Of a stretch of DNA of 64,000 nucleotides, positions 46,787 through 47,391 are shown piece by piece (position 1 is the first letter of the stretch; each line of letters begins with the position of its first letter). A model generated the notes under the pieces. That model was not told the origin of the DNA, did no database searches, and saw nothing but the letters and a program-made list of their open reading frames with translations. The translations under genes were made by a program, and so were the position numbers. The stretch comes from Clostridia bacterium (GTDB lineage Bacteria; Bacillota; Clostridia; Christensenellales; UMGS416): the NCBI GenBank assembly GCA_030637745.1, contig DAOWFX010000123.1, forward strand, positions 1,147 to 65,146, given 5' to 3'.

Positions 46787-47391
46787 CATGCACTGCTATT
46801 CAGTGCACAAATAATATATAATGCGGTCACATATGTTTAATATGCTCCCTTTTACAGATTATTTCTACCCTGCCTACTAGCACATCTAACCATTCTGTTT
46901 TGAATGCTTATGTTGCATGCACTGCTATTCAGTGCACAAATAATATATAATGCGGTCACATATGTTTAATATGCTCCCTTTTACAGATTATTTCTATCCT
47001 GCCTACTAGCACATCTAACCATTCTGTTTTGATGGTCATATTGCATGCACTGCCATTCAGTGCAAAATTCATAAATAACTCGGTCACATATGTTGGATAT
47101 GTTTCCTTTTATTTGTCAATTTTACTCTGCCTATCGGCACATCTAACCATTCTGATTCAGATGTTTATGTTATATGCACTGTTATCCAGTGCAAAAGCTA
47201 TATAGAACACAGTCACTTAAAAAGTATTTCCTTTAGGAAATGCTCGGGTAGCCTAGTTATGGACAATAGCTTGTGGTTACGATAGAAATAATCTAAGATT
47301 ATTGACCAACGTTCCTATGCACACTCTGTATATCGGCACATCTAACCATTCTGATTCAAATGTTTACGCTACATGCACTGCCTCCCAGTGC
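46787..47391. repeat. tandem array of about 129-bp non-coding units between smpB and ssrA
   Basis: Units start at 46787, 46916, 47044, 47173 and 47372 (partial). The invariant stem GCACTG-N5-CAGTGC occurs five times and the invariant box GCACATCTAACCATTCTG four times. Confidence 0.9.

Follow-up and report, generated by a model that had tools for sequence, protein, structure and literature searches.

The 671-nucleotide (nt) spacer between smpB and ssrA, the gene for transfer-messenger RNA (tmRNA), of a Clostridia bacterium (GTDB lineage Bacteria; Bacillota; Clostridia; Christensenellales; UMGS416) is made up for the most part of an element of about 122 nt that is repeated in tandem, in four to five copies showing progressive decay. 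The window, that is, the whole 64,000-nt stretch of DNA analysed, comprises positions 1,147 to 65,146 of contig DAOWFX010000123.1 (assembly GCA_030637745.1); both genes are on its minus strand, with the spacer at 47447–46777. The conserved feature is the single unit, which recurs directly upstream of tmRNA in related uncultured Clostridia and is predicted to fold into one extended hairpin ending on the expected RNase P cleavage site, while the multi-copy array is specific to this genome. The element is restricted to a narrow clade, is dispensable and ranges from zero to five copies. We regard it as a candidate for a new, undescribed structured RNA family of a familiar kind, the cis-acting leader or intercistronic hairpin. 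The array had been noticed in an earlier description made from the sequence alone (the sequence-only reading); the feature is real, and was described correctly but incompletely.

Tandem Repeats Finder places the array at 46783–47193 with a period of 129, 3.2 copies and 85% matches, and a repeat search gives unit spacings of 129, 128 and 199 nt. The units are numbered U1 to U5 from the tmRNA-proximal end (Table 1). The unit starts and periods, the five stems of 6 base pairs (bp) with their loop sequences and the four copies of an 18-nt box reported in the sequence-only reading are confirmed, all of them being confined to the spacer within the window. The box, GCACATCTAACCATTCTG, is found exactly four times (0.07 expected by chance), and the palindrome ATGCACTG-N5-CAGTGC five times, at 46788, 46917, 47045, 47174 and 47373, far above chance. 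An inverted copy of the box (15/18 match) at 46776–46793, abutting tmRNA +1, had been missed. The earlier account of the individual units also stands: U1 and U2 are 97% identical, differing by a 5-nt insertion and an altered basal 3' strand in U2; U3 is diverged (77–78% identical to U1 and U2); U4 has about 74 extra nt, given previously as about 70 bp; and U5 is a remnant. In the extra sequence of U4, at roughly 47235–47322, the 5' arm of the unit itself recurs in inverted orientation, and U4 is not recovered as a full match by the covariance model described below; judged from its sequence, U4 may combine two units that have each lost a part. Within the extra sequence, residues 47269–47294 are 77–81% complementary to 46856–46881 and 46985–47010. 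U5 consists of the start of the 5' arm (TTTAGAAGCACTG) fused to the end of the 3' arm, and retains only the basal stem and the 6-bp stem.

Table 1. Features of the smpB-ssrA locus in the window, in the order of the minus strand
Feature	Position	Strand	Basis or remark
Promoter-like site 5' of smpB, TTGATT-17-TATAAT (10/12)	47946-47974	minus	consensus scan, prediction
smpB coding sequence, 153 aa	47909-47448	minus	open reading frame listing; stop codon included
Start of spacer without repeats, weak A/T-rich hairpin	47406-47447	minus	sequence, fold; no terminator features
U5, collapsed unit	47357-47405	minus	alignment A1, fold (-10.8 kcal/mol), by-eye comparison with 5' arms of relatives
U5 6-bp stem	47375-47391	minus	
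U4, interrupted unit	47157-47356	minus	alignment, inverted-repeat search
U4 box	47336-47353	minus	
U4 local stem	47176-47192	minus	
U3, diverged full-length unit	47029-47156	minus	covariance model R1 (102.2 bits), fold (-32.5 kcal/mol)
U3 box	47137-47154	minus	
U3 local stem	47047-47063	minus	
U2, full-length unit	46900-47028	minus	covariance model R1 (108.4 bits), fold (-36.1 kcal/mol)
U2 box	47009-47026	minus	
U2 promoter-like site	46940-46968	minus	
U2 local stem	46919-46935	minus	
U1, intact tmRNA-proximal unit	46776-46899	minus	covariance model R1 (127.5 bits), fold
U1 box	46880-46897	minus	
U1 promoter-like site, TAAACA-17-TATTAT	46811-46839	minus	consensus scan, prediction
U1 local stem	46790-46806	minus	
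U1 perfect box partner	46777-46793	minus	
ssrA (tmRNA), tag peptide ANNDNLALAAA	46776-46413	minus	ARAGORN; Rfam RF00023, 157 bits
Intrinsic-terminator-like hairpin and T-run 3' of ssrA	46411-46384	minus	terminator scan

In the sense of ssrA, U1 (46776–46897) is predicted to form one extended, imperfect hairpin that is 122 nt long, with an energy of −52 kcal/mol (z −7.9), against −29.9 kcal/mol for the antisense strand, and the closing pair uses G+1 of tmRNA. The box forms the basal 5' strand, and the palindrome GCACTG-N5-CAGTGC lies within the 3' strand. The conserved stem and conserved box that the sequence-only reading saw in a drifting background are thus both present, but as the two strands of one hairpin of about 45 bp rather than as independent islands. 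All 45 pairs belong to one hairpin, in which the helices are interrupted every 3–13 bp, the longest unbroken ones measuring 11–13 bp; the predicted fold offers the two or so turns, or more, of largely duplex RNA expected of an RNase III substrate. Predicted stability declines with distance from tmRNA, from U1 through U2 and U3 and the interrupted U4 to U5 (Table 1). The name "decaying tandem array" is accurate in this sense, since what decays is the hairpin.

The 6-bp local stem is mutually exclusive with the extended hairpin and is also retained in relatives. Units of a second type (type B, in L004 and L009, with the 3' arm ACGGTG...GCGGCGT) keep five of its six pairs through two double changes and one G-U pair, a conservation that rests on a single divergence event. 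On this comparison the local stem is an alternative to the extended hairpin and not the main structure, and both appear to be maintained.

Related loci were compared in which SmpB is 67–89% identical to that of the window. Six related uncultured Clostridia (SmpB 78–84%) have a homologous element, in one to three copies, immediately 5' of tmRNA +1: one full and one degenerate copy in L001 (83%), three copies, the upstream two truncated, in L009/L010 (84%), two in L020 (80%), about one and a half in L011 (78%), and a single copy in each of L005 (79%) and L004 (80%). In L001, L004, L005, L009, L011 and L020 the stretch directly 5' of tmRNA +1 folds into this hairpin too, down to its internal loops, and in all seven lineages, this genome included, the 3' base of the hairpin is 0–3 nt from tmRNA +1. 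The proposal that the units correspond to the leader and promoter-like region immediately upstream of ssrA is borne out. In the closest relative (L101, SmpB 89%) a unit starts a few nt past the smpB stop, after which the contig ends; the break falls about 50 nt after the stop codon, inside a unit, and may reflect repeats there too.

The element is absent from two lineages with 86% identical SmpB (L006–L008 and L017–L019), whose smpB-tmRNA spacer is just 5 nt, and is dispensable because these close relatives live without it. L105 (SmpB 67%) has a 6-nt spacer and L102 (71%) an unrelated one of 110 nt, neither with the element. A metagenome scan for SmpB yielded relatives at 62% identity or less only, and none of these 80 loci carries it, so that the comparative set consists of the seven lineages with the element. 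The earlier statement that the spacer is normally short is only loosely true: in close relatives it measures 5–310 nt, and the distance from the end of the SmpB match to tmRNA ranges from 6 to more than 800 nt in more distant Clostridia. A general tmRNA-abutting hairpin in other Clostridia was considered and rejected, with no equivalent among folds of up to 130 nt upstream at 27 more distant loci and no match of the covariance model in the more distant Clostridia loci.

Nine intact units from the seven lineages were aligned with MAFFT without structure fitting (alignment A2). RNAalifold returns 45 pairs, of which 20 have compensatory changes, in agreement with the selection on RNA structure suggested in the sequence-only reading. 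Pairing is possible in 92.3% of cells, compared with 78.4% in shuffles (0/500 reach the observed value) and 29–43% when the partners are slid by one to three columns; the covariation score is 0.421 against 0.06–0.13 in the slid-partner controls. The latter control is the more reliable, because relatedness inflates the shuffle control. Every one of the nine units folds better in the ssrA sense, by 2–24 kcal/mol, and the consensus pairs include 44 G-U against 9 A-C combinations. The excess of G-U pairs and the sense-strand stability point to an RNA transcribed in the direction of ssrA rather than to a DNA palindrome. By pairing and strand asymmetry, aligned sequences thus identify the element as a probable conserved structured RNA.

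The window units are at most 72% identical to any unit elsewhere (U3 at most 66% to units of other species), and are closer to each other than to those, so that the copies were duplicated successively within the lineage or undergo homogenisation. Relatives have truncated upstream copies and units of types A and B in differing orders, which indicates recurrent duplication and loss at the locus. The box is invariant in U1 to U4, against variation in 41% of the remaining aligned columns (P ~0.001 against evenly spread variable sites). The box segment differs between species, its pairing partner has drifted in U2 to U4, and the four boxes share only one perfect partner (46777–46793, in U1). The constancy could be due to concerted evolution or to distal boxes competing for the proximal 3' arm, both being possible. 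The array is identical in GCA_023139005.1, another public record for this organism, the single mismatch in 1609 nt lying in smpB; since both records may go back to one set of reads, this is no independent check on how many U1/U2-type copies there are.

Promoter-like sequences are found within the units. Hexamer pairs matching the consensus at 9/12 are present on the minus strand in U1 and U2, where both TAAACA-17-TATTAT and TTAAAC-16-TATATT occur, the latter already pointed out in the sequence-only reading. Both units of L020 contain TTTACG-18-TATAAT (10/12), the region having seven such sites where 1.1 are expected, the L004 unit contains TTTAGA-17-TATAAT (10/12) and L005 has a 9/12 match. 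Sites of 9–10/12 occur in most units, and promoter-like hexamers in the units of every lineage except in the tmRNA-proximal unit of L001. They occupy three different positions in the alignment, so there is no positionally conserved promoter. The hexamers lend the idea of an iterated ssrA promoter weak support, set against their differing positions.

In a broader form of that idea, the units would be DNA-level modules, i.e. iterated ssrA promoters in which the palindrome, the box or both are regulator binding sites, with amplification raising or tuning the transcription of tmRNA. The hexamers on the ssrA strand in U1, U2 and the L020, L004 and L005 units, and their excess in L020, would suit such modules, an abundant and stable RNA such as tmRNA is expected to have its own promoter, and the constancy of the box in four units exceeds what pairing needs. 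The scattered positions of the sites and their absence from the proximal L001 unit speak against it, as do the 20 compensatory pairs and the 44:9 ratio of G-U to A-C, which are unexpected for a DNA site. The type B palindrome holds only with G-U pairs and is poor as DNA (4/6 positions, by eye), and the box sequence is not conserved between species. We consider this explanation doubtful; it is, in any case, compatible with a processing hairpin, and the two are not mutually exclusive.

A dispersed mobile repeat, such as a miniature inverted-repeat transposable element (MITE) or a relative of the repetitive extragenic palindromic (REP) sequences and bacterial interspersed mosaic elements (BIME), could have inserted and been amplified here; the unit ends are indeed inverted (CAGAATGGTTA...TAACCATTCTG). 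However, the covariance model built from alignment A2 (R1) finds no further copy, whether in the window or elsewhere in the roughly 305 kb of related loci. With filters off it scores U1 to U3 at 102–128 bits and the next best place in the window at 13.5 bits, and in relatives it matches solely directly upstream of tmRNA, plus the partial upstream copies. No transposase is adjacent, and the whole spacer has no blastn match in phage and plasmid collections. The box 18-mer has four single matches in a species-representative genome collection, in unrelated phyla and about the number expected by chance, and one chance-level match in viral contigs, with no match of the model at that position. Conservation in synteny and in fixed orientation, 0–3 nt from tmRNA +1 in seven diverged lineages, argues strongly against a mobile repeat, which we find hardly credible as an origin.

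The sequence-only reading could not assign the unit to any named family, and a search of Rfam release 15 agrees. At gathering thresholds only tmRNA (RF00023) passes in the window, and in the spacer even at E<=10 there are chance-level matches only (20 bits for GIR1, whose gathering score is 100, and 7 bits for alpha_tmRNA). There is no tRNA-like or tmRNA-derived segment in the spacer: ARAGORN reports only the tmRNA gene, and the tmRNA-family models stay at chance level. A search of the literature on pre-tmRNA leader hairpins and smpB-ssrA spacer motifs produced general background only.

The explanation that we favour, with middling confidence, is that a clade-specific hairpin of about 122 nt, intercistronic and part of the pre-tmRNA leader, was amplified in tandem in this lineage; it would act in processing and stability. 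We infer co-transcription, cleavage by RNase P and RNase III, and the stabilising effect. A joint smpB-ssrA transcript is likely because the spacers of some relatives are only 5 nt long, no sense-strand terminator intervenes, apart from a weak one in L004, and smpB has a promoter-like site of its own. No intrinsic terminator was found on either strand of 46777–47447, such sites only flanking ssrA and smpB, and, as had been noted before, no hairpin is followed by a T-run; in relatives there are no sense-strand terminator-like sites between smpB and the element, save one weak match inside the L004 unit.

In the co-transcript the hairpin would serve as an intercistronic processing and stability element. 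Cleavage by RNase P at tmRNA +1 would leave it as a nearly blunt 3' end of the smpB messenger RNA (mRNA), shielding the latter from 3' exonucleases such as RNase R. A nearly blunt hairpin terminus is the kind of end that resists these enzymes. RNase III may in addition cut the long stem and expose a short single-stranded leader for RNase P, and transcripts that start inside a unit, without its 5' arm, would form the 6-bp local stem and after it leave about 13 nt unpaired, as in a conventional RNase P leader. No copy other than the proximal one would have to be intact, the upstream ones being decaying duplicates that arose by unequal recombination or slippage, although they may still add promoter-like sites or extra boxes. 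It is established that the 5' end of pre-tmRNA is matured by RNase P, that U(−1)/G(+1) is optimal, and that a stable leader structure beside the cleavage site alters the kinetics (kcat/Km) (PMC10731613, PMC4919922, PMC3985003); in S. pneumoniae the level of smpB transcript depends on RNase R (PMC3534368).

Several points weigh against a processing and stability hairpin. The two lineages with 86% identical SmpB do without it, and a stable hairpin at the cleavage site could hinder RNase P instead of helping it. Transcripts from the promoter-like sites inside the units could not form the extended hairpin. Decay of the upstream copies leaves unexplained why the box is identical in U1 to U4 despite its drifting partner, and the comparative set is small, nine units from seven lineages with an effective sequence number of 1.45.

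A different use of the two folds would make the element a bistable RNA switch, through which tmRNA maturation is gated and coupled to the expression of smpB. In a read-through transcript from smpB the extended hairpin would close over the RNase P site, while in the alternative fold the local stem would free the leader of about 13 nt for cleavage; the four identical boxes of this genome would be rivals for the one perfect 3' arm, at tmRNA +1, and their number would tune the balance between folds. This would be an undescribed cis-acting control of ribosome-rescue capacity, but we think it quite improbable.

Each intact unit could instead be a small-RNA gene, with a hairpin RNA of about 120 nt or a leader fragment of about 30–55 nt acting in trans, for example by pairing with boxes or by binding protein at the conserved AAAGGA or GA-GA internal loops. 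RNase P at tmRNA +1 would make the 3' end of the proximal copy, and other processing would free the upstream ones. With its 5' and 3' ends paired, such a hairpin should be stable after release, several unpaired or internal-loop nucleotides are conserved in alignment A2 (A49, A50, G52, A54, A73 and C74), and the single-stranded tail of the U1 leader (46777–46793) is complementary to all four boxes. On the other hand, no positionally conserved promoter-like site precedes the 5' arm, most lineages lack a terminator-like site, and no target was identified outside the locus. The upstream copies of relatives are truncated or degenerate, so that only the position adjacent to tmRNA is apparently maintained. 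A trans-acting RNA is unlikely in our view, although together with the promoter or operator role it ranks as a main rival of the processing-and-stability hairpin.

The element can be compared with several known systems. Known pre-tmRNA and pre-tRNA leaders are short and largely unstructured. Like those removed by RNase P, the element is directly 5' of G+1 of tmRNA, with U at −1 in most lineages, and the same cleavage would remove it (background in PMC10731613, PMC4919922). Unlike them, it is a covariation-conserved hairpin of 122 nt and 45 pairs that closes on the cleavage site. REP/BIME sequences, such as that between malE and malF of E. coli, are also imperfect intercistronic hairpins, sometimes in tandem, which after processing form an mRNA 3' end that blocks 3' exonucleases, and the element resembles them in being an imperfect hairpin between cistrons that is sometimes tandem. 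However, REPs measure about 35 nt, occur by the hundred in a genome and depend on RAYT transposases for their mobility, while the element has 122 nt, one locus and a fixed orientation. With the RNase III stalks of ribosomal RNA (rRNA) operons and the R sites of T7 early mRNA, long imperfect duplexes next to a stable RNA or between cistrons, it shares such a duplex, predicted to be a plausible RNase III substrate; in the rRNA stalks the two flanks of the mature RNA, 5' and 3', pair with each other, whereas the element lies wholly upstream. The tandem P1/P2 promoters of rrn operons are likewise repeated promoter-like sequences 5' of an abundant stable RNA gene, but here whole 129-nt units with conserved RNA pairing are repeated, and the promoter-like sites are not conserved in position.

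tmRNA and SmpB are required together, and the balance of their production and the release of pre-tmRNA from smpB co-transcripts have been studied in few model species. Copy numbers from zero to five among close relatives provide a natural series for the study of leader structure, tmRNA maturation and smpB mRNA stability. The element adds an undescribed RNA motif from uncultured Clostridia, with a covariation-supported structure on the RNase P site of pre-tmRNA, and is an unusual case of a structured RNA element with tandem birth and decay. Its generality is limited by the narrow distribution and the dispensability.

Other known kinds of repeat do not fit. Iterons are direct repeats of about 17–22 bp with close, regular spacing beside an origin and a rep gene. 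The iteron-like binding sites offered as one possibility in the sequence-only reading are rejected: the boxes are 128–199 bp apart, their neighbours are smpB, ssrA and an amidase gene, with no origin or rep gene in the context, and the box sequence varies between species. The motifs GTTAGAT and ATGTAAC resemble, by eye, the R' and R'' cores of an integron attC site, but they are in the wrong order and not conserved in relatives, and there is no IntI gene. A retron was rejected for lack of a reverse transcriptase, a CRISPR array for lack of spacers, and a tRNA-like cloverleaf because, of the basal stem and the 5' local, apical and 3' local hairpins that it requires, the 5' local hairpin is only 2–4 bp and inconsistent between lineages.

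A small protein or leader peptide was also rejected, as six-frame translation of the nine units gives no frame that is open in all lineages. Near the apex of the unit (window 46826–46850, with equivalents in U2 and in relatives) there is a sequence AAAGG(G)AG resembling a Shine-Dalgarno (SD) motif, followed by ATG or GTG some 12–14 nt further on. In the window this arrangement reads ATG-TGA, a start with a stop immediately after it; it recurs in most lineages without a conserved peptide. L001 has neither an SD-like motif nor a start codon near the apex, and downstream reading frames differ between lineages.

The SmpB protein of the window is 100% identical to a database "SsrA-binding protein SmpB" (P0001, Pfam PF01668) from a "Clostridiales bacterium" metagenome-assembled genome. 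Whereas rnr or secG precedes smpB in many Gram-positive bacteria, the gene 5' of smpB in the window (47983–48840) encodes an N-acetylmuramoyl-L-alanine amidase (Amidase_3). The order amidase-smpB is common to the window, L009, L011, L020 and L102.

At the 3' end of ssrA an integrated element of about 5.1 kb is present (41286–46440), with the last 28 bp of tmRNA repeated directly and exactly at its two boundaries (41286–41313 and 46413–46440). Its cargo includes a tyrosine integrase (44140–45288, plus strand) and a repressor-like gene with helix-turn-helix and Peptidase_S24 domains (41622–42317, minus strand). The same ssrA site in L001, L004, L011 and L020 contains other integrase or serine-recombinase cargo. 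The contigs of L006, L007, L008 and L010 stop exactly in the last bases of tmRNA (...CCTCCA), which fits assembly breaks at a variable ssrA-integrated island.

For the tmRNAs of L009 (4773–5134) and L010 (2364–2722) ARAGORN gives an odd tag, AADNLSLCYCLGII*, at an unusual position; since the usual ...AACAACAATAATTTAGCTTTAGCTGCTGCTTAA tag region is present in the sequence, the program has probably misplaced the resume codon. The tmRNA of L005 (4631–4990) is not called by ARAGORN, yet its sequence is clearly that of a tmRNA (GGGGGCGTACCGGCTTTCGACG ... CCTCCACCA).

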